Origin: an uncultured Clostridia bacterium
Lineage (GTDB): Bacteria > Acidobacteriota > Blastocatellia > Chloracidobacteriales > JADJPF01
Direction of reading: 5' to 3'
Assembly: GCA_964492845.1 (NCBI GenBank)
Contig: CAZBMZ010000032.1
Span: 1 to 12,089 of the forward strand
Length of the DNA stretch: 12,089 nucleotides
Part shown: piece by piece, positions 860-12,089 of the stretch
How the letters are laid out: each line of letters starts with the position of its first letter
Position numbering within the stretch: position 1 is the first letter of the stretch
Position numbers and translations under genes: made by a program
Notes under the pieces: model-generated
What the model saw: the letters and a program-made list of their open reading frames with translations, nothing else
What the model was told of the DNA's origin: nothing
Databases searched by the model: none

Positions 860-1126
860 GTGGCGAAAGATAGTTCACATCTTGAATTAGCACAGCTTAT
901 AGAGCAACATCAGAGTGATGGATTAATTGAGCAAGGAAGTTGGACATCTCAAGTTGGTAAAAAAACTAGACATTATGAATATAGGATTCTACATCATGTT
1001 GATTTAACCAAAAGTAAAAAGGTAAATCTAAACTACTTTGAAGTTTGGGAACGTGACTCTTCTAATTCTTTACTCTATCATAATAGTTGGGTTACTGACT
1101 TTAGAGTTACTAAAGAGAGGGTGTAA
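860..1126 (+). CDS. Hypothetical 88-aa ORF with GTG start. Likely a fragment of a gene disrupted by the IS insertions.
   Basis: Open frame with host-like T-ending codon usage. GTG start directly after a stop, with no convincing SD, and no family recognised. Confidence 0.3.
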   Translation: MAKDSSHLELAQLIEQHQSDGLIEQGSWTSQVGKKTRHYEYRILHHVDLTKSKKVNLNYFEVWERDSSNSLLYHNSWVTDFRVTKERV

Positions 1127-1272: not shown

Positions 1273-2633
1273 ATCGCTTCGCTTTCATATTTGCACTTAA
1301 GGATGAAAAGCTAGAAGAGAAAACCTATTACTGCCCAAAACTTTGAGCAGTAAATTAAGTACAAAAGGAGAAGAAAAAATGCCAATTACACGAGAAATAC
1401 TAAACGAAATAATGAAAGATTATAGCAGTCCAGAAGACCTATTAGGAGAAAAAGGATTATTACATCAACTAACAAAAGCCTTGATAGAGAAAGCACTAGG
1501 AGCAGAGTTAACAGAACATTTAGGCTATGAAAAATACGAAGAAAAAGGAAGAAATAGTGGAAATAGTAGAAATGGAAGTAGTAAAAAGAAATTGATAGGA
1601 AAACAAGGAGAAATAGAAGTAGAAATACCCCGAGACAGAAATGCAGAATTTCAACCACAACTAATAAAGAAAAATCAAAAGCGATTTGATGGATTTGATG
1701 ATAAAGTAATTTCAATGTATTCTCGCGGGATGACAACACGTGAAATACAAGCACACTTAGAAGAAATATATGGAGTAGAAGTCAGTGCAGCCTTAATAAG
1801 TGAAGTAACAAACGCAGTAATAGAGGAAGTCCGAGCTTGGCAAACTAGACCCTTAGATGCAGTATATCCAATAGTTTACCTAGATGCTATACAAGTAAAA
1901 ATACGCACAGAAGGAAAAGTCAGTAATAAAGCGATATATTTAGCAATAGGGGTAAATTTGAAAGGATACAAAGAAGTATTAGGAATGTGGGCTAGTGAAA
2001 ATGAAGGGGCTAGATTTTGGTTGAGTGTAGTGACAGAGTTAAAAAATCGTGGAGTGAAAGATATATTTTTGGCTTGCATAGATGGCCTTAAAGGATTTCC
2101 AGAAGCTATAGAATCGGTGTTTCCAAAAACTCAGATACAACTTTGTGTAATTCACGTAATTCGTAATTCTTTGGCTTACGTATCCTATAAAGACCTTAAA
2201 AAGATTGTTGTAGATATGAAGCTTATTTATCAAGCAGTTACCGAAACTGACGCTGAAATTGCCCTAGAGCTTTTTGCTGATAAATGGCAATCCCGTTATC
2301 CTATGGCTGTCCAAGTCTGGAAAAGCAACTGGCGACATATTCGCACTTTTTTTGCTTTCCCTTTAGAAATTCGCAAAGCTATTTATACTACTAATGCTAT
2401 TGAGTCTGTTAATTTTTCTTTGCGTAAGATTTCTAAAAACCGAGCTTTGTTTCCCAATGATGAAAGTGTTTTTAAGCTTTTTTACTTAGCTATTAAAAAC
2501 ATTTCTAAGAAGTGGACTATGCCTATTCAAAACTGGATTGATACCATTAACCAGTTTTCTATTTTCTTTGAAGATCGTGTTCCCTTACCCTCTTGATTTT
2601 TATTTACACAATTTGTTTGACACCTCCTTTCTA
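1253..2633 (+). mobile_element. Complete IS256-family insertion sequence (~1.38 kb).
   Basis: Single 405-aa Mutator/IS256-type transposase. The right end is defined by comparison with the second copy at 1-58. The left end is approximate: the presumed left terminal repeat is an imperfect match to the reverse complement of the right end. Confidence 0.75.
1379..2596 (+). CDS. IS256-family (Mutator-like) DDE transposase, 405 aa.
   Basis: ATG at 1379 preceded by AAGGAG at 1365-1370. The track ORF starts at TTG 1343, which is less likely. Motifs: VYLDAIQVKIR, CIDGLKGF and TNAIESVN, matching the IS256 DDE signature. Confidence 0.9.
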   Translation: MPITREILNEIMKDYSSPEDLLGEKGLLHQLTKALIEKALGAELTEHLGYEKYEEKGRNSGNSRNGSSKKKLIGKQGEIEVEIPRDRNAEFQPQLIKKNQKRFDGFDDKVISMYSRGMTTREIQAHLEEIYGVEVSAALISEVTNAVIEEVRAWQTRPLDAVYPIVYLDAIQVKIRTEGKVSNKAIYLAIGVNLKGYKEVLGMWASENEGARFWLSVVTELKNRGVKDIFLACIDGLKGFPEAIESVFPKTQIQLCVIHVIRNSLAYVSYKDLKKIVVDMKLIYQAVTETDAEIALELFADKWQSRYPMAVQVWKSNWRHIRTFFAFPLEIRKAIYTTNAIESVNFSLRKISKNRALFPNDESVFKLFYLAIKNISKKWTMPIQNWIDTINQFSIFFEDRVPLPS

Positions 2634-3414
2634 TGTAAGAAGTATTAATCCAACCACTACCTTGAGAAAGAGCAATTAGCTTTTCTACAGCCTCAAGACT
2701 ACCTTTGACAAACCTATGTTGGACTCCAACTACAAGTTTACCACTATATTGTTTGACTACTTGAGCAATCATTAGACCAGGCCACACTTTGAACTTTAGT
2801 CTTGATTGCCCATCTTGTTTTTCTTTATCTCTAAATGCTTGTAAACTTGCTCTTATATAAGAAACTAATCCATCTACACATATTAATATTTCTCCTGCCT
2901 TTGCACAGGCTCTAATTTTTCTCATCAATTCACTTATCAAGGCCATATCCCTATTTTTACTTATTACTCCTCCTAACCATAGCCTCGTTTGAACCATTAT
3001 CCCCATTGCCATCCACACTATTATTCCTTGTGGTTTCACTCTTATTTCGTCACATTGTACTTGTCCTATTTCTCTTGGCTTTTCTATCACCTCCTTATGA
3101 ACTTTTTCGCAGTGATTTCCCGCCTTGTTTTGCCAATTTCTTACTGTTCTTTCATCTAGCCCCATTGCCATAACTATTGCTTGTATTGGACATCCATTTC
3201 CTACTAATGTTATTACTGTTTCCACTAAGTCTATTTCCTGCTTTACTTTATGTATTCTGTAGTAAGCCGTCCCTTTGCTTTGTGCAAACGTTTTTTTACA
3301 TTCCTTGCACTTGTACCTTTTCTCTTTCTAACTATGTATTTTTATGTTCCCTTTTCCTACTTCCCCTCTAGCAATGCATTCCATATTCGGGCAAAATACT
3401 TCTGTTGAGTTCAT
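2527..3414 (-). pseudogene. IS1-family transposase with an in-frame TAG stop at codon 29 (3328-3330). The last ~34 codons are read from IS256-derived sequence.
   Basis: ATG at 3414. Translation: MNSTEVFCPNMECIARGEVGKGNIKIHS*KEKRYKCKECKKTFAQSKG...VETVITLVGNG...QVQCDEIRVK...ILICVDGL...YIERR. This gives a Cys4 zinc ribbon followed by InsB-like DDE motifs. The same frame is open from 3414 to 2530 apart from the TAG. Confidence 0.8.
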
Positions 3415-3485
3415 ACTGATAGTCCTTTCTTTTTTATCTCAATTTTGATTATCAGTATTTTTCTCTACTTTTTCAATCCTTACCC
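2633..3485 (-). mobile_element. IS1-family element remnant, 3'-truncated by insertion of the complete IS256 copy.
   Basis: IS1-type zinc-finger plus DDE transposase. GGTAAGG at 3478-3484 (minus strand) resembles the IS1 terminal GGTAATG. ACTGATA motifs lie near the start codon as in IS1. Homology to InsB stops at the ...YIER codon, exactly at the IS256 boundary (~2631). Confidence 0.6.
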
Positions 3486-3588
3486 TTGGCCACGGTTAAT
3501 TGGAGTGCTACCCGTCAATTCTCTATTCCAATACTTCAATTATAAACTTCTTCCTCTTACAAGTTATCCATGTTTTAGCAAAATTTAG

Positions 3589-3640
3589 TTGACCTTTTTA
3601 CCATTGCCATTTACTTTTAAGAAAATCAAACGTTTGTTTT
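3589..3640 (+). promoter_or_regulatory. Putative sigma70-type promoter (TTGACC, 17-nt spacer, TACTTT) plus a perfect 10-bp palindrome CAAACGTTTG (3627-3636). The palindrome is a candidate TetR operator.
   Basis: Read from the sequence. The palindrome lies between the -10 hexamer and the TetR start codon. A related half-repeat AATCA(A/T)C(T/C)GTTTG recurs at 3641-3653. Confidence 0.35.
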
Positions 3641-3663
3641 AATCATCTGTTTGAATTATAAAA

Positions 3664-4338
3664 ATGGCAAATAATTTATTAGAAAATCAAGAAGAATTAG
3701 GGACTAAGCATCGGCTACTAGCAGTTGCAGAAAGGCTTTTTGCTGAACGAGGGCTAGCAGCAACAAGTATTCGAGACTTGGCACGGGAAGCAGAAGTCAA
3801 CATTGCTGCGGTAAATTATTATTTTGGGAGCAAAGAAAATCTTTACCTAGAAACATTGCGCTATGCTTTTCAACAAACAGGCGTAAGTTCTCCAGAATTT
3901 GAAAAAATAGTTAAAAAAGCCGAAGCCATTAATACAAAAGAAGCGGCTGAAATAGCTATTACTAAATATATTGAAGAATTTCTTCTCTTGATTCTTTCCT
4001 CTGATCAAGCACGCCGGCATGCTTGTTTAATGAGTAGAGAAATCAGCGACCCTACACCAGCTTTGGACGTTATTGTTCAAGAATTTATTTTGCCCAAAAA
4101 TAGAGCTTTATCTAGATTAATTGCTCAAGTTCAACCTGCTTTAGCAAATTCTGACAAGCTTCCGCTTTATACTATTAGTATTGTTTCTCAATGTCTACAT
4201 TATCATTTTGCCCTACCAATTATCTTAAAAGTACTTAATCAAAAAGAAATGACTCCAGACTTAATTAGTCGTATTGCTAAACATATTGCTGAGTTTTCCC
4301 TAACAGCATTAAAAGGTGTAAATCAAATAGAGGTCTAA
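3664..4338 (+). CDS. TetR/AcrR-family transcriptional regulator, 224 aa.
   Basis: N-terminal HTH LLAVAERLFAERGLAATSIRDLAREAEVNIAAVNYYFGSKENLY is the canonical TetR_N signature. Stop codon lies 2 nt before the next start. Confidence 0.9.
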   Translation: MANNLLENQEELGTKHRLLAVAERLFAERGLAATSIRDLAREAEVNIAAVNYYFGSKENLYLETLRYAFQQTGVSSPEFEKIVKKAEAINTKEAAEIAITKYIEEFLLLILSSDQARRHACLMSREISDPTPALDVIVQEFILPKNRALSRLIAQVQPALANSDKLPLYTISIVSQCLHYHFALPIILKVLNQKEMTPDLISRIAKHIAEFSLTALKGVNQIEV

Positions 4339-4340
4339 AT

Positions 4341-5462
4341 ATGTTACGTATTGCCTTACAAATGCTTATTGGTGATCGCGCTAAGTATATTACTTTGGTT
4401 AGTGGATTAGCTTTTGTTTCTTTATTATTTATTCAACAAGGGTCGGTTTTCTGTGGATTAATGCTTCGTACTGCTAAACCTATAGAAACCGTTGGGGCGC
4501 AAATTTGGGTAGCAGATCCTACACTACAATCTATAGATGAGTCTAAACCTTTATTAGACACAGATTTAACACGTGTGCGAAGTGTGCAAGGCGTAAAATG
4601 GGCAGTTCCTTTATTTTTAAGACAAACTCAAGTCAGATTAAAAACAGGTAAATTTCAAACTGTAAGACTTTTTGGTTTAGATAACGCTAGTTTAGCAGGT
4701 CGTCCTGGCAAAATGCTTGAAGGTGATACATCTGCGCTTAACTCCCCTGATTCTGTAATAATTGGAAAAGCGGAAGCAGAACGCTTAGGTAGCCCTAAAA
4801 TTGGTGATACTTTTGAAATTAATGACCGTCTTGCTCGTGTAGTTGGAATTGCGGACGTTCCAAGAGATTTTCTATCTAACCCTTATGTTTACACTACTTA
4901 TGACCGTGCATTACAATATTCACCTCGCCAGCGTAAACAACTTAATTTTATTTTAGTCCAAGCTCAAGACTCTTTAGACCCTAAAGAACTTGTGGAAACT
5001 ATTAAAAAATCTACAGGTCTGGCTGCTTATACTAAAGAAGATATGGAGTGGCTTACTATTGGCTACTATATGAAAAATACTGGCATTCCAATTAATATTG
5101 GGATTTCTTTAACCCTAGTTTTTCTTGTTGGAATGGCTATTGCAGGACAAACATTTTATGCTTTTGCCCTACAAAATGAGCGTTATTTTGGCGCGCTTAA
5201 AGCAATGGGAACTAGTAGTTTTACATTAGTTAAAATGATTTTACTTCAAAGTTTAACAGTAGGAATAATTGGCTATAGCATTGGTTCTGGAGCAGGCTGC
5301 CTTATTGGTTGGGTTAATCAAACTGGCCGACTAGCATTCTTTACCCCCTATCAACTACTGTTAATTAGTTTTATTATAACAATTCTAATCTGCATGGTAG
5401 CTAGTTTAATTAGCATTAAACGAGTCTTACAATTAGAACCTGCCGTAGTTTTTCGTAGCTAA
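4341..5462 (+). CDS. ABC exporter permease, FtsX/MacB-type (DevC-like), 373 aa.
   Basis: N-terminal TM segment, a large extracytoplasmic domain, and a C-terminal hydrophobic three-helix FtsX-like region. Translationally coupled to the flanking genes. Confidence 0.8.
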   Translation: MLRIALQMLIGDRAKYITLVSGLAFVSLLFIQQGSVFCGLMLRTAKPIETVGAQIWVADPTLQSIDESKPLLDTDLTRVRSVQGVKWAVPLFLRQTQVRLKTGKFQTVRLFGLDNASLAGRPGKMLEGDTSALNSPDSVIIGKAEAERLGSPKIGDTFEINDRLARVVGIADVPRDFLSNPYVYTTYDRALQYSPRQRKQLNFILVQAQDSLDPKELVETIKKSTGLAAYTKEDMEWLTIGYYMKNTGIPINIGISLTLVFLVGMAIAGQTFYAFALQNERYFGALKAMGTSSFTLVKMILLQSLTVGIIGYSIGSGAGCLIGWVNQTGRLAFFTPYQLLLISFIITILICMVASLISIKRVLQLEPAVVFRS

Positions 5463-5465
5463 AAT

Positions 5466-6203
5466 ATGAAAATACAAGATAATCAACTAACAAACTATGA
5501 TATAGCAGTGTCTTTAACTAAAGTATCTAAAACTTTTGGTGTTGGAGACACTCAAGTTAAAGCATTAAAAACAGTGGATTTACAAGTTTCTTGTGGTGAA
5601 TTACTTTTACTAGTGGGCCCGTCTGGATGTGGTAAAACTACTTTATTAAGTGTGATGGCTGGAATACTGGATAATGATGATGGTGTAGTTGATGTTTTTG
5701 GTGTAAGAGTAGATAAATTAAGTCAGGCTCAAAAAACTAATTTTCGTCGTCAATATGTAGGTTTTATTTTTCAACAATTTAATTTAATACCAACTTTAAC
5801 AGCAGCAGAAAATGTTGCTATTCCTCTACTTATCGCTAAAACTCCTTATTCAAAAGCTGTAAAAAAAGGGCGGGAGTTTTTATCTTTAGTAGGGCTAGGC
5901 GAAAGAACAGAATTTTTTCCTACACAACTTTCAGGCGGACAACAACAACGTGTTGCTATTGCTCGTGCTTTAGTATCTGAACCTAGGCTTATTGTCTGTG
6001 ATGAACCTACTGCTAGTTTAGATGGAGATACAGGAAAATTAGTTATGGAGATGTTCCGACGTACCGCACTTAGCAAAGATCGAGCAATTATTGTTGTAAC
6101 ACATGATAACCGTATTTTTTCTTATGGCGACCGAATAGCAGAAATGTTAGATGGGCAAATCGTCAATGTTCATAATAACCATAATGATTTAGTACATCAA
6201 TAA
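5466..6203 (+). CDS. ABC transporter ATP-binding protein (DevA/MacB/LolD-type), 245 aa.
   Basis: Walker [13 protein letters not shown] signature [15 protein letters not shown], Walker [14 protein letters not shown]-loop VVTHD. Confidence 0.95.
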
Positions 6204-6231
6204 GATAGAGGGATTAGAAGGAATAATAAGT

Positions 6232-7299
6232 ATGAGAAAATATGCCAGTATTTTATTAGCACTAATTGGAATAAGTTTTGCAGTTTATTGGGTAAAAGTC
6301 TCTGCTCGTCCAACACCTATTGCCCAACCGCTTAATGAACCTGCACAAAACACTTATGATCAAACTATTGCTGGTGCAGGAATTATTGAAGCAGCAGGAC
6401 GTAATATTCAAATTAACCCTCCTATTGCTGGTCAAGTTACACAAATCTTTGTTAAAGAAAATGATTTGGTGAAAACAGGTGATAAACTCTTTTTGATAGA
6501 TGATCGGGAGCAACGCTCTAAAATTGTTAGTGCTGATGCTAATATTGCCCGTGCTGAAGCAACTTTAGCTACAGCACACGCTGATATTGCTACTCAAGAA
6601 GCAGCTAAACAAAGTGCTGATGCTAATATCTCTCAATTAAAAGCATTGCTAGAAGACAATGAACAAGTTTTAGCTAGTAATGAAAAACTTTATCAGACTG
6701 GTGTAATTGCCTTTTTAACTTATAATACTAGCTTAAAGGCTCGTGATGCTGCAAAAGCTCGTGTAAGTCAAGCTGAAGCACAATTTCAACAAGCAGATGC
6801 GTTGCTTAATAGTGCAACAGCTAGAATAAAAGAAGCAGAAGCCAATTTAAGTGTCTTAAAAGCGCAACGAGCAGAACTTTTAGTTAATTTAGAGAGATTA
6901 ACAGTTACTGCACCGCAAACTGGCCGAGTTCTACAGCTTAATATCCGTGTTGGAGAAATGATTACAGCTAATCCAATTCAAGCATCAATGTTGATTGGAG
7001 AGACAGATTTTTTACAAGTTCGAGTAGATATAGATGAGGTTAATGCTGTTAAATTTTCTTCTGGAAGCCAAGCAATTGCACATCTAAAAGGAGATTCAAA
7101 TAAAAAAATTCCTCTAGAGTTTATTAGAATAGACCCTTATATTTTGCCAAAGAAAAGCTTAACTGGTGATAATACTGAGCGTGTAGATATTCGTGTCTTG
7201 CAAGTAATTTATAGATTTTCACCTCCAACTTTTCCTGTTTATGTTGGTCAACAAGTAGATGTGTTTGTTGATGCAGCACCCAAAGTTGCAACCAAATAA
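6232..7299 (+). CDS. HlyD-family membrane-fusion (periplasmic adaptor) protein, DevB/MacA-like, 355 aa.
   Basis: N-terminal TM anchor ILLALIGISFAVYWV, a biotin-lipoyl-like segment (PIAGQVTQIFVKENDLVKTGDKLFLID), and a long Ala/Gln-rich coiled coil. SD GAAGGAA lies upstream. Confidence 0.85.
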   Translation: MRKYASILLALIGISFAVYWVKVSARPTPIAQPLNEPAQNTYDQTIAGAGIIEAAGRNIQINPPIAGQVTQIFVKENDLVKTGDKLFLIDDREQRSKIVSADANIARAEATLATAHADIATQEAAKQSADANISQLKALLEDNEQVLASNEKLYQTGVIAFLTYNTSLKARDAAKARVSQAEAQFQQADALLNSATARIKEAEANLSVLKAQRAELLVNLERLTVTAPQTGRVLQLNIRVGEMITANPIQASMLIGETDFLQVRVDIDEVNAVKFSSGSQAIAHLKGDSNKKIPLEFIRIDPYILPKKSLTGDNTERVDIRVLQVIYRFSPPTFPVYVGQQVDVFVDAAPKVATK

Positions 7300-7329
7300 A
7301 AAAAGCCTAGTAATAACTAGGCTTTTTTA
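7300..7329. terminator. Bidirectional Rho-independent terminator between convergent genes.
   Basis: AAAAAGCCTAGT-aata-ACTAGGCTTTTT is a perfect 8-bp GC-containing stem flanked by an A-run and a T-run. It sits 1 nt after the adaptor stop and about 20 nt after the methyltransferase stop. Confidence 0.8.
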
Positions 7330-7348: not shown

Positions 7349-8407
7349 CTAAGCCTTTACAGCCATAATTACATGATCCATCCAAGAGCCATCAGGAATT
7401 TCTTTTACTTCTGCTTTAACAAAACCTGCATCATAGAGCCAAGACATAATTTGTGCTGCCGTGTAACTCTCTCCCATAGTCATATTTAAGCTAAATAGTG
7501 CTGGCAGCAAGGGTTGAGCGTCTTCATCATCTAAAAGCATTTCTTGAATTACAATTAAACCATTTGATGACATAGCTTTATAGGCTTTGCGTAACATTTT
7601 TTTACAAGTTGCTTCAGAAAAACCATGTAAAACACCAGAAATTAACATTACATCATATTCCTGGTCATAAGTATGAAAAGGAACTTGTGCTGGTTTAACG
7701 CTAACACGTTCTTTTAGACCGGAACGAGCAATAATTTCTTCAGCATAAGGAACTACTTCTGGATCATCTAAGACGGTAGCTTGTAAATTTGGATTACGTA
7801 AACAAAGAACTGCTGCATAAGTTCCGGGCCCGCCTCCAACATCGCATAAATGTTGACGACCGCTTAAGTCTAACATCTTAGCTAAAGCTTCTGCCTGACC
7901 ACTCATTGCAACATTATGAGAGCTAAGAATCCAGGCACGACTAGTTTCTTGGTCTGTTCGTTCTGTTGTTTGACTATCATTTCGCAGGCCAGTTTGAACC
8001 GTGCTAGCTAAAGTGCCAAATCTTTCCCATAGCGAGCCTAAATGCAGCAAAAAATGACCTTGGTAATGTGGTTTATATTCAACTAGATATTGTGATGCAG
8101 TAGGTGAATTACTAAAATATTTATCGCTTTTTTCTAACATCCCCATAGCAGCGCAAGCAGTTAAAAGCTTTTCTGTCCAACGGCGATTTAAGCCAAGTTT
8201 ACGTGCTAAATAATCACTTGTAGCAGGGTTATTTTCTAGCCTAGTAAAGACTCCAAGCTTAATTGCAGCTATGAGCGCGCCAGAAGCCCAAAACCCTGTA
8301 GCAATATCATAGATTTTTTTGATATCCGATTGTCTATCGTTATTGTTAGCTTCATTAGCTGATTTATTAGGTGTTTTAGTCTTGGTTTTTGATTGTGGTG
8401 AGTCCAT
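7349..8407 (-). CDS. Class I SAM-dependent O-methyltransferase (plant COMT-like family 2 with N-terminal dimerisation region), 352 aa. Carries a Lys/Thr/Asn-rich N-terminal extension.
   Basis: SAM motif LCDVGGGPGTYAAV. COMT-like downstream blocks (VLDDPEVV, ...GLIVIQEMLLDD). N-terminus MDSPQSKTKTKTPNKSANEANNNDRQSD is low-complexity. Confidence 0.85.
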   Translation of the reverse strand: MDSPQSKTKTKTPNKSANEANNNDRQSDIKKIYDIATGFWASGALIAAIKLGVFTRLENNPATSDYLARKLGLNRRWTEKLLTACAAMGMLEKSDKYFSNSPTASQYLVEYKPHYQGHFLLHLGSLWERFGTLASTVQTGLRNDSQTTERTDQETSRAWILSSHNVAMSGQAEALAKMLDLSGRQHLCDVGGGPGTYAAVLCLRNPNLQATVLDDPEVVPYAEEIIARSGLKERVSVKPAQVPFHTYDQEYDVMLISGVLHGFSEATCKKMLRKAYKAMSSNGLIVIQEMLLDDEDAQPLLPALFSLNMTMGESYTAAQIMSWLYDAGFVKAEVKEIPDGSWMDHVIMAVKA

Positions 8408-8542
8408 AATTTAGCTAGTTTGTCCCCTTGTTTAAATAATTAAAAAATGATTAAAATTCTATCACGGTTTTTTACAGAAAATAAAAGAGTTAATAACAAA
8501 TAATATAGTTTATCAAAATAAATTGTTGAGAGTAGGTTATTT

Positions 8543-10780
8543 ATGGCTAAAAAAGTTTTCTTGCTAGTAATTTGCATTTTCTGCCTTTTAACAATTATCT
8601 TTCCTACAACTAAAGCCCAAATAGAAAATTTAGAGCCTGTTGGCAGACCGTTTATTCCTCTTGAAGCTAGATTAAAAACTTCTGCACCTGCAAATATGCT
8701 TATTAGTGGCACATTATATTTTCGCTTAAAAAATGAATCTGCACTTGATGATCTTTTAAGAGAACAGCAAGCTCCTACAAGTGAAAATTATCAAAAATGG
8801 CTTACTCCAAATCAATTTGGTGAAAAGTTTGGTGCTTCAAAAGATGTTTATCAAATGGCTATTGGTTGGCTAGAAAGCTCAAATATTAGAATTACTCAAA
8901 AATGGGCAAATCGTTTAAGACTAGATTTTCAAGCTCCTGTTTCGGAACTCCAAAAAGTTTTTCAAACACAAATACAGCTATTTGAACTAGATAACCAAAT
9001 TTACTATGCAAACTCACAAGCTAGCCATTTGCCTGCTAACTTAGCTTTAGAGATTATAGATGTTAAGCTAAATAGTTTTCTTTTTACAGAACCAAGCATA
9101 AAAAGACAACCTCAAGATATTTTGCCTACTGTAATAGATCGCGGACGTTTTGCTATTGGCCCACAGGATTTACACGTTGCTTATAATTTCAGACCGCTTT
9201 TTGCTAATGGCATTGAAGGCCAAGGACAAAAAATTGGTATTATTGCTAGAAGTGATTTTGATATGTCAGATGTTAATACTTATCGAGATTTATTTAAGTT
9301 ACCTGCTGTTAACATTGTAAAAATCCCTGCTGGTGGTGAAATAATTGACCGAGGTGGGATAGAAACCTTAGAAGTCTTGCTTGACACCCAATTATCAGGC
9401 GCGGCAGCACCAAAAGCAGATATTCAAGTAGTCATAGCCGATCGAGATAGTGATATTGATCAATCCTTAGCTTATTTTCTAAATGTTTTACCTGACACAA
9501 AAATATTAAGTATTAGTTTTGGAGCTTGTGAAAAATTTTTATTTCCTCAATTTGTTGCTTTATTTAACAATCTTTATAAACAAGCTGCGGCTCAAGGTCA
9601 GACAGTCTTTGTTTCTTCGGGTGATCGCGGTGCAAATGATTGTGGTGATGGACAAAGCTTGCAAGTTAATGGACTGGCCTCAAGTCCTTTTATAGTTGGT
9701 GTTGGAGGAACATCTTTAAGAGTTGAAACTAATAGTAATGGTGATGTAACAGCTTATCAAGATGAACAAGTTTGGCAAGGTAGCGGTGGTGGAATAAGTG
9801 TAATGTTTCCACGTCCAGACTTTCAAACTTTAGCTGGAATAACTCAAACAGGTCGGACGGTTCCTGATGTTTCATTGCTAGCCGACTTTAGTCGCCCAGG
9901 TTTTTTTGTTGTTGAAAGTGGGTTTACCCGTGTTATTGGTGGAACAAGTGCCTCTGCTCCGGTTTGGGCTGGGATTTTAGCCTTAACTAACCAGTTTTCT
10001 AAAACAGATGGTTTTGGTAATGCCAATCATCGCATCTACCAACTAGGTAAACAACAAGAAATTAGTGCTAGTCCTCGTTCATTATTTTTTAATGATATTA
10101 CGGTAGGAAATAATAGCGGTGGTGGACTCGATGGTTATCAAGCACGCCCAGGTTATGATCTAGCTACAGGTTGGGGAACACCTAATGTAGACCTGTTTGC
10201 TCGCAGTCTTTCTGGTGTTCCAGATAAAACTGATGGGTTATTTTTAACTTTTCCAAATGGAGGTGAAGTTTTACCACAAGATCAAACAATCAATGTTCGC
10301 TGGATTTTATCTCAAGACCTAGCTGCTAAGGCTACAAACCAAGATTTAATGCTTTCTACAGATGAAGGAAAGACATTTCAAACCATTGCTAACAATTTAG
10401 CTGCAAACCTACGAAGTTTTGATTTTACTCCAACAAAAATAACTGCAATAGCACGCTTTCGTATTGTTGTACGTACAAACTCTAGTAGCCAAATAGTTGA
10501 CACAAGTGATGCTAACATCAATATTGGCACAAACTTACGTATAGATTTTGCTCGCTACTCAATTTTAGATAACCGCTTAGAAATAATAGGCGAAGGGCTT
10601 TCCACAAAAGTAAAATTATTTGTTAATGGTGTTTCTATTAACCGTCCAGCAAAATTAATGGAGGATTTACTTTCATTTAAGGGCAAAGAGAAAAAGTTTA
10701 AGCTTAAAAAAGGTGAAAATACCGTAGCAATAGAAATTAATGGTATACGTTCAGCTATTTACAAATTTTTTGTTTTATAG
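8543..10780 (+). CDS. Secreted S53-family (sedolisin/kumamolisin-like) serine peptidase, 745 aa: signal peptide, pro-domain, catalytic domain, and a ~195-aa C-terminal extension of unknown function.
   Basis: Signal peptide MAKKVFLLVICIFCLLTIIFPTTKA. Catalytic Ser motif GGTSASAP, SSGDRG (oxyanion Asp), and the S53 Ca-binding motif GYDLATGWGTPN. SD GAGAGTAGG upstream. Confidence 0.85.
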   Translation: MAKKVFLLVICIFCLLTIIFPTTKAQIENLEPVGRPFIPLEARLKTSAPANMLISGTLYFRLKNESALDDLLREQQAPTSENYQKWLTPNQFGEKFGASKDVYQMAIGWLESSNIRITQKWANRLRLDFQAPVSELQKVFQTQIQLFELDNQIYYANSQASHLPANLALEIIDVKLNSFLFTEPSIKRQPQDILPTVIDRGRFAIGPQDLHVAYNFRPLFANGIEGQGQKIGIIARSDFDMSDVNTYRDLFKLPAVNIVKIPAGGEIIDRGGIETLEVLLDTQLSGAAAPKADIQVVIADRDSDIDQSLAYFLNVLPDTKILSISFGACEKFLFPQFVALFNNLYKQAAAQGQTVFVSSGDRGANDCGDGQSLQVNGLASSPFIVGVGGTSLRVETNSNGDVTAYQDEQVWQGSGGGISVMFPRPDFQTLAGITQTGRTVPDVSLLADFSRPGFFVVESGFTRVIGGTSASAPVWAGILALTNQFSKTDGFGNANHRIYQLGKQQEISASPRSLFFNDITVGNNSGGGLDGYQARPGYDLATGWGTPNVDLFARSLSGVPDKTDGLFLTFPNGGEVLPQDQTINVRWILSQDLAAKATNQDLMLSTDEGKTFQTIANNLAANLRSFDFTPTKITAIARFRIVVRTNSSSQIVDTSDANINIGTNLRIDFARYSILDNRLEIIGEGLSTKVKLFVNGVSINRPAKLMEDLLSFKGKEKKFKLKKGENTVAIEINGIRSAIYKFFVL

Positions 10781-10858: not shown

Positions 10859-10882
10859 TTAAGATTGCACTTGCAATCTTAA
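10859..10882. terminator. Strong hairpin (11-bp stem TTAAGATTGCA / TGCAATCTTAA, 2-nt loop) between convergent genes. It overlaps the stop codon of the small ORF.
   Basis: Perfect palindrome read from the sequence, preceded by TTTTT. Lacks a clear downstream U-tract on either strand. Confidence 0.5.
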
Positions 10883-11130
10883 GCTACCTTTAATGGATGA
10901 TAGAGCTTTTCAGGATCTGTCTCTGCTGGTAATGTTTCAGCAACCATATAGTCAGGTATAGATAAAATTACTATACGTCCATCATTAGTTGTTGCAGGGA
11001 TTTCCCAAGCAATACCAGTCCAAGCAGCTAATTCAAAAGATTCTGGATCATTTGGTGAACCTCTTAATCTAATCCAACATTTTGCACCAGAAGTTTTATT
11101 AGTCCCTTCTTTTCCCATAAAATTACCCAA
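10879..11130 (-). CDS. Orphan small protein (83 aa from TTG 11130, or 79 aa from ATG 11118). No recognisable family.
   Basis: Open frame with balanced, Trp-containing composition (…CWIRLRGSPNDPESFELAAWTGIAWEIP…). Bracketed by hairpins. AAAGG lies 12 nt before the ATG. Confidence 0.35.
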   Translation of the reverse strand: MGNFMGKEGTNKTSGAKCWIRLRGSPNDPESFELAAWTGIAWEIPATTNDGRIVILSIPDYMVAETLPAETDPEKLYHPLKVA

Positions 11131-11308: not shown

Positions 11309-12089
11309 TTATTCATAACGTAATGCTACTAGTGGATCAACTTTTGTAGCGCGGTAAGCAGGAATATAGCTAGCTAGCAAGGCAGTTAGAGCTAAAATTA
11401 ATGGAGCTATTATAAAAGTTATTGGATCAAAAGCACTTACACCAAATAAAAGACCTGCAAAAAGACGTGCTAAAAATAAACCGCCTATTGTCCCAAGAAC
11501 AATACCTATCATAACTAGCAACATAGCTTGGCTAAGAACTAGTTTTAGGATATCAAAGGGTTTCGCGCCTAAAGCCATACGAACGCCTATTTCTTGGGTA
11601 CGCTGATTTACAGAATAGGCTAGGATTCCATAAATTCCAACAGCAGCAAGAACTAAAGCTAACAGCCCAAACAAAACTAGTAAAATAGCACTCATACGAG
11701 CAGCCCAAAGACTTTGGCCTATTATTTCAGAAACTGTATTGATGTTTGTAAGAGGTAAATTACTATCAAGTGATTGTACTTCTGATCTAACTGTCCCTAA
11801 GATGCTTTTAGGATCTTCTTTACTTTGAACATATAAAGTTACTAAATTTGTATAACGTTGAAATATTGGGATATAGGCACAAGGATTTGGCTCTTCACCA
11901 AGAGAAACTTGTTTAGTATCCTTAACAATACCTATTACTTCAGTAAAATTGTCATCTCCAAAAAACCTAAAACGTTTTCCGATAGCATCTTGTCCGGGCC
12001 AAAAGCGTTTTACCATTGCTTCATTAATAATTGCAACACCTACAGCAGTTTCTCTATCAGTGTCATTAAAATCTCGCCCTTGCAAAATA
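11309..12089 (-). CDS. ABC transporter permease, MacB/FtsX family (C-terminal part). N-terminus lies beyond the window edge.
   Basis: MacB-type periplasmic domain residues (GQDAIGKRFRF, VIGIVKDT) followed by a hydrophobic FtsX-like four-helix region ending ...VDPLVALRYE. The frame is still open at 12089; the track's Met is a TTG. Confidence 0.85.
   Translation of the reverse strand, partial: ILQGRDFNDTDRETAVGVAIINEAMVKRFWPGQDAIGKRFRFFGDDNFTEVIGIVKDTKQVSLGEEPNPCAYIPIFQRYTNLVTLYVQSKEDPKSILGTVRSEVQSLDSNLPLTNINTVSEIIGQSLWAARMSAILLVLFGLLALVLAAVGIYGILAYSVNQRTQEIGVRMALGAKPFDILKLVLSQAMLLVMIGIVLGTIGGLFLARLFAGLLFGVSAFDPITFIIAPLILALTALLASYIPAYRATKVDPLVALRYE

Follow-up and report, generated by a model that had tools for sequence, protein, structure and literature searches.

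The open reading frame at positions 7349-8407 on the minus strand of the window (the whole stretch of 12,089 nucleotides analyzed here) has as its predicted product a cytoplasmic SAM-dependent methyltransferase with the COMT-type fold. We consider it probable that this enzyme is a small-molecule SAM methyltransferase of the Acidobacteriota, that its gene is vertically inherited and monocistronic at this locus, and that its ancestral role was linked to DNA repair. Under this explanation, the gene would represent, in the window, a narrow orthologue group of soil and groundwater Acidobacteriota, mainly Blastocatellia, that is passed on by vertical descent.

The gene starts at an ATG and encodes 352 residues carrying the two domains of family 2 (COMT-type) methyltransferases, the family to which the initial annotation had assigned it: a winged-helix-like OMT dimerisation domain (residues 28-109, positions 8081-8326, minus strand; PF08100, 6.6e-16, 58.3 bits against a cut-off of 25.6) and a Rossmann-type SAM-binding and catalytic domain (residues 171-329, positions 7421-7897, minus strand; PF00891 Methyltransf_2, 6.5e-22, 78.4 bits against a gathering cut-off of 22.3). 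Judged by these profile scores, both Pfam matches are far above chance. The AlphaFold2 model (pLDDT 85.3) displays the two-domain fold of the family and was matched by Foldseek with a probability of 1.00 to RedM, DsyB and the structure 5i2h, and the dimerisation domain can be aligned with the N-terminal domains of both RedM and DsyB. The end coordinate 8542 given earlier for this gene takes in both the open reading frame and the intergenic region that precedes it.

The residues expected for SAM binding could be read directly from the sequence. Motif I, the glycine-rich SAM-binding loop (DxGxGxG), is present as DVGGGPG at residues 189-195 (positions 7823-7843, minus strand), as is the acidic residue closing beta-2. 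In the alignment with DsyB, the SAM contacts G173, D196 and S239 of that enzyme correspond to G191, D214 and S257 of the methyltransferase (PMC10989797), among which the ribose-binding Asp214 is kept. The canonical general-base position of the family is occupied by His261 (codon at positions 7625-7627, minus strand), which aligns with RedM S253, a position that is "typically a histidine" in the family, and E289 aligns with the supporting glutamate E281 of RedM (PMC10784701). H261, Q288 and E289 are invariant across 24 aligned relatives; the residue following the catalytic His261 is Gly262, at a position where Asp or Asn is common in the family. The retained catalytic His261 and Glu289 therefore make an O-methyltransferase of a small hydroxylated metabolite the most likely function. 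Since RedM, an N-methyltransferase, and DsyB, an S-methyltransferase, are among the nearest solved relatives, it is the retained His/Glu pair only that points to O-methylation, and no biosynthetic cluster surrounds the gene. In the proposed mechanism, the enzyme would act as a homodimer and His261 would take a proton from the hydroxyl of a small, probably planar or aromatic metabolite, an amine or a thiol being less likely, after which the SAM methyl group would pass to the deprotonated acceptor atom.

The hallmark of the orthologue group is a disordered Lys-rich N-terminal tail of 17-34 residues. In the window protein the tail is rich in Lys, Thr and Asn and comprises codons 1-27 (positions 8327-8407, minus strand); residues 1-26 read MDSPQSKTKTKTPNKSANEANNNDRQ, K/T-rich in the first half and N/D/E-rich in the second, and pLDDT is below 50 at residues 1-21. 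The initial annotation had described a low-complexity basic extension absent from canonical members: the extension is real, but the label "basic" is weakened by a net charge of only +2 (4 K, 1 R, 3 D/E). After codon 1, no in-frame ATG, GTG or TTG occurs before codon 88, and a stop is found two codons 5' of the ATG. Synthesis of the dimerisation domain thus requires translation of the tail as well, and a downstream alternative start removing the tail was rejected. A signal peptide or membrane anchor composed of a basic n-region and the hydrophobic segment ATGFWASGALIAAIKLGVF was also rejected, because ATGFWASGALIAAIKLGVF forms helix 1 of the dimerisation domain and can be aligned with RedM and DsyB. 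Comparison of orthologues established the tail as a clade-wide compositional feature, kept down to approximately 52% identity, and among the 128 ORFs of the clade loci only the methyltransferase orthologues carry a Lys-rich N-terminus of this type.

The gene and its divergent neighbor share an AT-rich intergenic region (positions 8408-8542, GC 0.207) whose previously reported length of 135 bp proved exact. This neighbor encodes a secreted S53 peptidase of the kumamolisin/sedolisin type (745 aa, positions 8543-10780, plus strand; Pro-kuma_activ 1.8e-24) that matches kumamolisin 1t1e over residues 53-548 (2.4e-35), carries a signal-peptide-like N-terminal segment and a GGTSASAP serine motif, both read from the sequence, and has no Pfam match in its 196-aa C-terminal region. 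When orthologous intergenic regions were compared, conservation was limited to the methyltransferase-proximal half of the 135 bp. A candidate extended -10 promoter element of the methyltransferase, TGaTAGAAT, was located at positions 8456-8464 (minus strand); the window and four orthologous intergenic regions share the block AAAACCGTGATAnAAT with little or no variation. A Shine-Dalgarno-like AAGGGGA lies 15 nt 5' of the ATG (positions 8423-8429, minus strand), and five orthologous upstream regions all contain CAACAAGGGGA unchanged. The candidate promoter was called because of this cross-species conservation and not from a sigma70 consensus scan, in which promoter-like sites were no commoner than in shuffled sequences (5 versus 4.3 expected). 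Rfam searches at gathering thresholds matched no riboswitch or other RNA family anywhere in the window, the 5' region included.

On its other side, the methyltransferase gene is convergent on a TetR-DevCAB-like exporter operon, as had been noted from the start: the ends of the DevB-like and methyltransferase genes are at 7299 and 7349, respectively, and the 49-bp gap between them holds a bidirectional intrinsic terminator hairpin (positions 7299-7328) with a 13-bp stem, a 4-nt loop, A-run and T-run flanks and folding energies of -16.4 and -16.3 kcal/mol on the two strands. Going by their consensus features, these elements would function as promoter and terminator of the methyltransferase gene. 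The gene would accordingly be read as a monocistronic unit in the window, served by a conserved extended -10-like element and a ribosome-binding site of its own, and the bidirectional terminator would set it apart from the exporter operon.

Orthologues of the methyltransferase (51-98% identity) were found only in Acidobacteriota/Blastocatellia MAGs and in metagenomes. Every named close homologue is an Acidobacteriota MAG protein, and above 42% identity a single 50%-identity cluster representative was recovered among 1.8 billion proteins. A metagenome scan for further orthologue loci returned only paralogues of 30-42% identity, which were reused as the background set. The S53 gene lies divergently upstream of the orthologue in five loci (L001, L002, L003, L005 and L009, of which L001, L003 and L005 belong to the MAGs JBDIBI01, JAHFUF01 and JACQZQ01) and the S53 partners of the orthologues are 51-66% identical; 80-84% identical orthologues with a divergent S53 gene occur at four Blastocatellia/Acidobacteria MAG loci, and a 58%-identical orthologue has both S53 and Fpg neighbors. 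One orthologue adjoins the rpsK-rpsD-rpoA-rplQ cluster. The presence of tail-bearing orthologues across the Acidobacteriota, the S53 pairing in five loci and the ribosomal-cluster neighbor together argue for vertical inheritance, and the divergent S53 gene is conserved synteny within one sublineage. The initial annotation had itself named orthologues with the same tail in syntenic core-genome positions as the observation that would speak for vertical descent, and this is largely what was found.

The gene on the opposite flank of the orthologues provides a clue to their ancestral role. In 9 of the 14 orthologue lineages with context, the gene directly downstream encodes an Fpg/Nei-like glycosylase or exonuclease III (Xth). 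Fpg/Nei-like genes occupy this position in L004, L006, L007, L009, L011 and L099, separated from the methyltransferase gene by 1-246 nt, and Xth genes in L008, L012/L013 and L014/L015 (TIGR00195, 267-299 bits against a cut-off of 182.55); the gap to the downstream repair gene is 1-6 nt in three lineages. Neither type of neighbor was detected at any of 80 paralogue loci or in any of three relatives of 42-48% identity. The Fpg-like neighbors are mutual orthologues and the Xth loci share synteny among themselves; the repair-gene synteny may represent as few as two evolutionary events. From the same-strand repair gene that follows the methyltransferase in most other lineages, we infer that the ancestral role probably had to do with the physiology of oxidative damage; a basic tail could plausibly anchor the enzyme on DNA or another polyanion. 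The window itself holds no repair-gene neighbor; in its low-GC lineage this neighbor would have been lost and the net charge of the tail would have come down to +2.

A stronger version of this linkage, which strikes us as unlikely, would make the tail-bearing clade an unrecognized class of the COMT fold coupled to base-excision repair, tethered to DNA by a histone-like tail rich in Lys and methylating oxidized bases in situ or after their excision by the operonic Fpg/Nei-like enzyme, with the window lineage decayed or uncoupled. Stated for the single enzyme, the methyltransferase would be a dedicated repair partner whose Lys-rich tail sits on DNA and which methylates either a damaged or oxidized base in nucleic acid or a free base released by the Fpg/Nei-like glycosylase (for instance the 8-hydroxy tautomer of 8-oxoguanine), the window copy being a relic; this we also find doubtful. 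It is favored by the occurrence of two different base-excision-repair genes at the same position and by the lack of this linkage at the paralogue loci and in the nearest tail-less relatives. Bacterial repair proteins such as M. smegmatis Ku do bind DNA through low-complexity tails rich in Lys (PMC3553676). The charge of the tail peaks in the Fpg-linked orthologues (+6 to +10), a trend whose data points across orthologues are phylogenetically non-independent. A dedicated repair role is weakened by the small number of events that could account for the synteny, and fpg genes are often found in operons with unrelated genes. Furthermore, we know of no COMT-type methyltransferase that acts on nucleic acids or excised bases, and literature searches for such an enzyme, or for an OMT-Fpg-Xth association, found none. 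P0019 has Xth but lacks the tail, and the window lineage keeps the methyltransferase without a repair neighbor, which indicates that the enzyme is valuable on its own. A defense-system reading of the glycosylase and methyltransferase pair was rejected, since PADLOC gave only a generic match of the SAM domain (partial, 31-36 bits, to mad2) and none for the Fpg-like, Xth or S53 proteins.

We give similarly little credence to a membrane-peripheral methyltransferase acting on a lipophilic hydroxylated substrate (a carotenoid as for CrtF, a quinone or a bacteriochlorophyll-like pigment) and binding anionic phospholipids through its basic tail. The closest fold superposition, with a TM score of 0.79-0.83 and an rmsd of 3.0 Å, was indeed obtained with Plim_1147 (PDB 5i2h), an uncharacterized family-2 O-methyltransferase of Planctopirus limnophila labelled demethylspheroidene O-methyltransferase (PMC10784701), but sequence identity is only about 25%. 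The top NCBIfam match is likewise the CrtF/BchU model TIGR02716; at 76 bits against an equivalog cut-off of 276.1, and with no pigment-biosynthesis context, assignment to BchU/CrtF was rejected. Lipid- or glycan-related genes (GT21, PMT_2 and a fatty-acid hydroxylase) do adjoin the orthologue in L001, L002 and L005, but they are convergent instead of co-oriented and are missing from the window, and carotenoid or chlorophyll genes lie near the methyltransferase in no locus.

Co-regulation and functional coupling of the methyltransferase with its divergent S53 neighbor, in which the methyltransferase might for example process an aromatic product of extracellular proteolysis, appear improbable. 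Their pairing is kept from the window to the 58%-identical orthologue, with S53 partners 51-66% identical, but inherited synteny alone would give a pairing of this kind confined to one sublineage. The Fpg-only and Xth lineages lack the S53 gene, the peptidase is secreted whereas the methyltransferase is cytoplasmic, and it is only the methyltransferase-proximal half of their intergenic region that is conserved.

The initial annotation had offered two further readings, a co-acquired module and a plant-type or eukaryote-like protein of a symbiont. The physical adjacency of the methyltransferase, S53 and exporter genes and the presence of transposase genes (IS256-type and IS630-like) flanking the exporter at a distance of 1-4 kb, which implies that the region has been rearranged, are compatible with the former. 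Of the proposed module, the S53 pairing stood, as conserved sublineage synteny only. The exporter operon adjoins the methyltransferase in no relative examined, the convergent neighbors in L001, L002 and L005 being PMT_2 and GT21 glycosyltransferases, and its position in the window would be a lineage-specific, IS-associated juxtaposition. The composition of the gene is not deviant: its GC (0.387) and GC3 (0.235) fall inside the range of the other window genes, and no anomaly was found. A plasmid or phage origin was rejected: the best plasmid matches were at most 37% identical and the phage search gave no matches. The label "plant" did not survive either, as the nearest solved relatives are bacterial: PDB searches matched RedM (6.5e-36) and DsyB (7e-35), both over the full length, whereas plant COMT/IOMT chains matched nothing but the SAM domain (approximately residues 180-335), at 1e-5 to 1e-7, and membership of the plant caffeic-acid/isoflavone OMT subgroup was rejected on these grounds. 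A natural-product or tailoring module acquired horizontally together with the S53 peptidase and the ABC exporter, or a eukaryote-like symbiont protein, is thus very improbable and already largely refuted, all the more as the window contains no PKS, NRPS or RiPP precursor and the MAGs that carry the orthologues are those of free-living Acidobacteriota of groundwater and sludge.

As far as the window is concerned, the outcome is a deflationary one: what its gene encodes we take to be a routine, vertically inherited small-molecule methyltransferase, and it provides no evidence for a symbiont, for a eukaryote-like protein or for the import of a tailoring module. The orthologue group unites a COMT-type core, a conserved Lys-rich disordered tail and a recurrent operon-level linkage to two base-excision-repair enzymes. 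If this linkage is functional, it would tie a small-molecule methyltransferase fold to the handling of oxidative DNA damage in Acidobacteria, a phylum of poorly known physiology; for a protein family so far only generically annotated, this is a hypothesis specific enough to be tested.

Among known systems, the reductasporine N,N-dimethyltransferase RedM (PDB 8tji/8tjj) is the best match by both sequence and Foldseek, with approximately 31% identity over residues 28-337 and a common two-domain COMT-type architecture. RedM M157 and M301 correspond to M168 and M309 of the methyltransferase, whereas F153, H250, N254 and M297 are replaced by H164, G258, G262 and F305, so that the FxxxM and MxxxM substrate motifs of RedM read HxxxM and FxxxM. 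RedM has a Ser where the methyltransferase has the catalytic His261, and the RedM S253H variant is inactive (PMC10784701). Given His261, the differing motifs and the absence of a bisindole gene cluster from the window, a RedM-type N,N-dimethyltransferase was rejected. DsyB/DSYB (PDB 7wdq/7wdw), the MTHB S-methyltransferase of DMSP synthesis, is similar over its full length (approximately 28% identity) and shares the Gly after the catalytic-His position, but it lacks the catalytic His that the methyltransferase has. None of its six MTHB contacts (Y97, Q101, Y129, Y142, Q146 and H291) is identical in the methyltransferase, where F119, G124, E149, W159, S163 and M309 are found (PMC10989797), and an MTHB S-methyltransferase was rejected for this reason. 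Some relatives are annotated by PGAP as "acetylserotonin O-methyltransferase". Human ASMT (PDB 4a6d) is related to the methyltransferase by overall similarity alone (3.9e-25, approximately 26% identity), and both it and the plant COMT/IOMT enzymes (1kyz, 1fp2) belong to the same Pfam family and use the same His-based general-base chemistry. Their catalytic "HD" dyad is "HG" in the methyltransferase, and the Lys-rich tail distinguishes it from RedM, human ASMT and plant COMT/IOMT alike, all of which lack it.

The methyltransferase is encoded by an ATG-initiated ORF of 352 aa (7349..8407, minus strand), and the gene geometry described in the initial annotation was confirmed: it diverges from a 745-aa S53 (kumamolisin-type) peptidase gene (8543..10780, plus strand) across exactly 135 bp of 20.7% GC, and converges on a four-gene exporter block (3664..7299, plus strand). 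The S53 product carries a Pro-kumamolisin activation domain (1.8e-24), matches 1t1e over residues 53-548 (2.4e-35) and displays a signal-peptide-like N-terminus and a GGTSASAP serine motif, both recognized by eye in the sequence; its last 196 residues (10190-10777, plus strand) have no Pfam match. The exporter genes encode, in order, a TetR/CecR-like regulator, a DevC/MacB-like FtsX permease, a DevA-like ABC ATPase and a DevB/HlyD-like adaptor. Since none of the three transporter genes reaches the equivalog or subfamily cut-off of the heterocyst Dev models, the block is described as a tripartite exporter of MacAB/DevBCA-like type. Beyond the peptidase gene lie an 83-aa ORF (10879-11130, minus strand) with a sub-threshold DUF5440 match (22.6 bits vs 27) and a second MacB/FtsX-type permease gene (11309-12085, minus strand) running off the window end.

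The 49-bp convergent gap with the exporter block contains a strong bidirectional hairpin terminator. When five orthologous intergenic regions were aligned, conservation was found on the methyltransferase side only, in the block AAAACCGTGATAnAAT, which reads as a candidate extended -10 (TGnTAGAAT, 8464-8456), and in the Shine-Dalgarno-like element CAACAAGGGGA (8429-8423). This one-sided conservation makes the methyltransferase gene look like an independent monocistronic unit.

The initial annotation had also proposed a co-acquired module or a eukaryote-like protein, and neither proposal held up. Searching related loci by tblastn with the window proteins, we found the exporter genes beside the methyltransferase in no relative, and their juxtaposition is thus particular to the window genome, where they adjoin IS elements. 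In L001, L002 and L005 the convergent neighbors are instead PMT_2 and GT21 glycosyltransferase genes. The divergent S53 gene recurs in L001, L002, L003 and L005 (64-66% identical to that of the window by tblastn) and again in L009, beside an orthologue 58% identical to the window methyltransferase. In L001 (7099-7515), L005 (7108-7518) and L009 (2867-3289), the S53 gene is followed by a conserved gene of about 138 aa with no assigned function, with a PhyH dioxygenase gene next in the first two only; the 138-aa gene was not found in the window by tblastn. L002 (CAZHXL010000079.1), labeled "uncultured Clostridia bacterium", has the S53-methyltransferase-PMT_2-GT21 order of Blastocatellia MAGs at 83% protein identity, and its taxonomic label is probably wrong.

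The transposase genes lie left of the exporter block. Two adjacent minus-strand ORFs at 27-772, of 140 aa (HTH_32, 2e-16) and 104 aa, appear to be the N-terminal part of an IS630-like transposase broken in two, with a probable frameshift or truncation at the window edge. A Mutator/IS256-type transposase gene (1343-2596; Pfam 7.2e-126) has a 32-nt terminal inverted repeat on either side (1111-1142 and 2602-2633; 78% complementary), and together they form a complete-looking insertion sequence at 1111-2633. Its right end is overlapped by a 232-aa ORF with a weak HTH_29 match only (2527-3225, minus strand), and its left repeat is abutted by an 88-aa ORF without family match (860-1126, plus strand); both may be what is left of a different element that the IS256 insertion disrupted.

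Nothing supports a recent transfer or a eukaryotic origin of the methyltransferase itself. Its GC (0.387) and GC3 (0.235) fall inside the range seen across the window's other genes, and tblastn detected no match above 37% identity in plasmids and none in phages. A search of 5.8 billion proteins returned 70 relatives; all that exceed about 50% identity come either from Acidobacteriota MAGs or, unnamed, from metagenomes. The closest solved proteins are bacterial. Four Blastocatellia/Acidobacteria MAG loci recovered by a genome scan carry orthologues at 80-84% identity, and a further one carries an orthologue at 62%. In an exhaustive 50%-representative library with 12,497 detectable family members, the relative P0006 was the sole representative above 42% identity; by sequence, the clade is tight within a very large family. 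One Blastocatellia MAG locus (L001) carries, 6 kb from the orthologue, a paralogous Methyltransf_2/Dimerisation gene (2735-3751, minus strand) that is 25% identical to the window methyltransferase and devoid of the Lys-rich tail, which indicates several family-2 methyltransferases per such genome.

The low-complexity N-terminal tail noticed initially is real. Residues 1-26, MDSPQSKTKTKTPNKSANEANNNDRQ, come ahead of the dimerisation domain's first helix and are predicted to be disordered (pLDDT <50 at residues 1-21; model mean 85.3). They belong to the translated protein, because no alternative in-frame start exists up to codon 88 and the frame is closed by a stop two codons upstream of the ATG. 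In an alignment of 24 relatives, all members down to about 52-58% identity except P0019 carried a Lys/Ser/Thr/Ala/Pro-rich segment of 17-34 residues, which was absent from the nearest outgroup (42-48% identity). Its letters are poorly conserved and its composition is conserved, as expected from the sequence pattern of a functional disordered region. Net charge separates the subgroups: the tails of P0006-P0012, P0014 and P0016 carry +6 to +10, those of P0015, P0017 and P0018 carry +4 to +6, and those of the window's subclade no more than +2 to +4. When 128 ORFs of 120 aa or longer from 13 loci of the clade were compared, only the 10 methyltransferase orthologues themselves had at least 6 K+R and at most 5 hydrophobic residues in their first 30 positions; the tail is therefore specific to these orthologues and clade-defining. 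The initial annotation had named beforehand, as evidence against its own proposal, same-tail orthologues in syntenic positions across related species; these were largely found, which argues for vertical inheritance.

In most orthologue lineages a base-excision repair (BER) gene lies directly downstream of the methyltransferase gene on the same strand. It encodes an Fpg/Nei-family glycosylase in L004 (3298-4164), L006 (4586-5452), L099 (1805-2686), L009 (7157-8026), L011 (1324-2022) and L007 (7312-8190), after gaps of 3, 1, 6, 70, 75 and 246 nt, respectively; the L011 copy appears truncated. These neighbors are mutual orthologues (43-59% identity) that retain Pro2/Glu3 and the H2TH motif, possess an unusual CPxGH...CPxCQ zinc-finger-like C-terminus and, at about 88-107 bits, fall well short of the fpg equivalog cut-off of 203. 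In L014/L015 (L014 7032-7799), L012/L013 (L012 7553-8323) and L008 (about 7562-8326) the neighbor is Xth, judged from its score a bona fide exodeoxyribonuclease III (267-299 bits on TIGR00195 vs a cut-off of 182.55). The Xth-linked orthologues form a more distant subclade, and L015 contains the same Xth DNA (100% by tblastn), not called as a gene. Of the distinct orthologue sequences of known context, six have Fpg, three have Xth, and the other five, which are the window's subclade and P0010, have neither. No Fpg, Xth or S53 match was found at 80 paralogue loci (30-42% identity), nor a BER neighbor in three relatives at 42-48% identity, two of which sit in MFS-transporter operons. In a neighbor-joining tree of the core domain, the window's subclade is sister to P0006 and falls within the tail-plus-Fpg clade, so that loss of the BER neighbor in the window is secondary. 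The points of interest are mainly the clade-wide tail and the BER synteny, the latter no longer present at the window copy.

Because the Fpg-like neighbors are mutually orthologous and the Xth loci share synteny, the pattern may come down to two evolutionary events. Two such independent juxtapositions, each with a different enzyme of one pathway and with operon spacing kept across 52-68% protein divergence, are suggestive, not proof, of functional coupling. In some bacterial repair proteins, for example M. smegmatis Ku, Lys-rich low-complexity tails act as DNA-binding modules (PMC3553676). Given this precedent and the synteny, a BER-coupled, DNA-tethered role for the tail-bearing clade is retained at low weight, as an improbable reading.

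A small-molecule O-methyltransferase is the best-supported description. The Pfam matches, at 6.5e-22 for Methyltransf_2 and 6.6e-16 for the OMT dimerisation domain, are well over gathering scores, and DVGGGPG occupies residues 189-195. The nearest solved proteins by sequence are RedM (6.5e-36) and DsyB (7e-35), followed by algal DSYB and human ASMT (3.9e-25). Plant COMT/IOMT chains score only 1e-5 to 1e-7, through the SAM domain alone; "plant/COMT-type" thus stands as a family-2 fold class and fails as a plant affinity. Foldseek with the predicted model agrees, the best global superposition being 5i2h (TM 0.79-0.83), an uncharacterized planctomycete family-2 OMT. BchU/CrtF identity was rejected on its equivalog score (76 bits, far under the cut-off of 276). 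Literature-defined residues were placed through HMMER alignments. His261 aligns with RedM Ser253, a position "typically a histidine" in the family (PMC10784701), and Glu289 with RedM E281; RedM identity was rejected on His261. The DsyB SAM contacts G173, D196 and S239 are conserved, but none of its six MTHB-contacting residues (PMC10989797) is kept, and DsyB identity was likewise rejected. Unlike RedM and DsyB, the methyltransferase keeps the general-base machinery expected for O-methylation.
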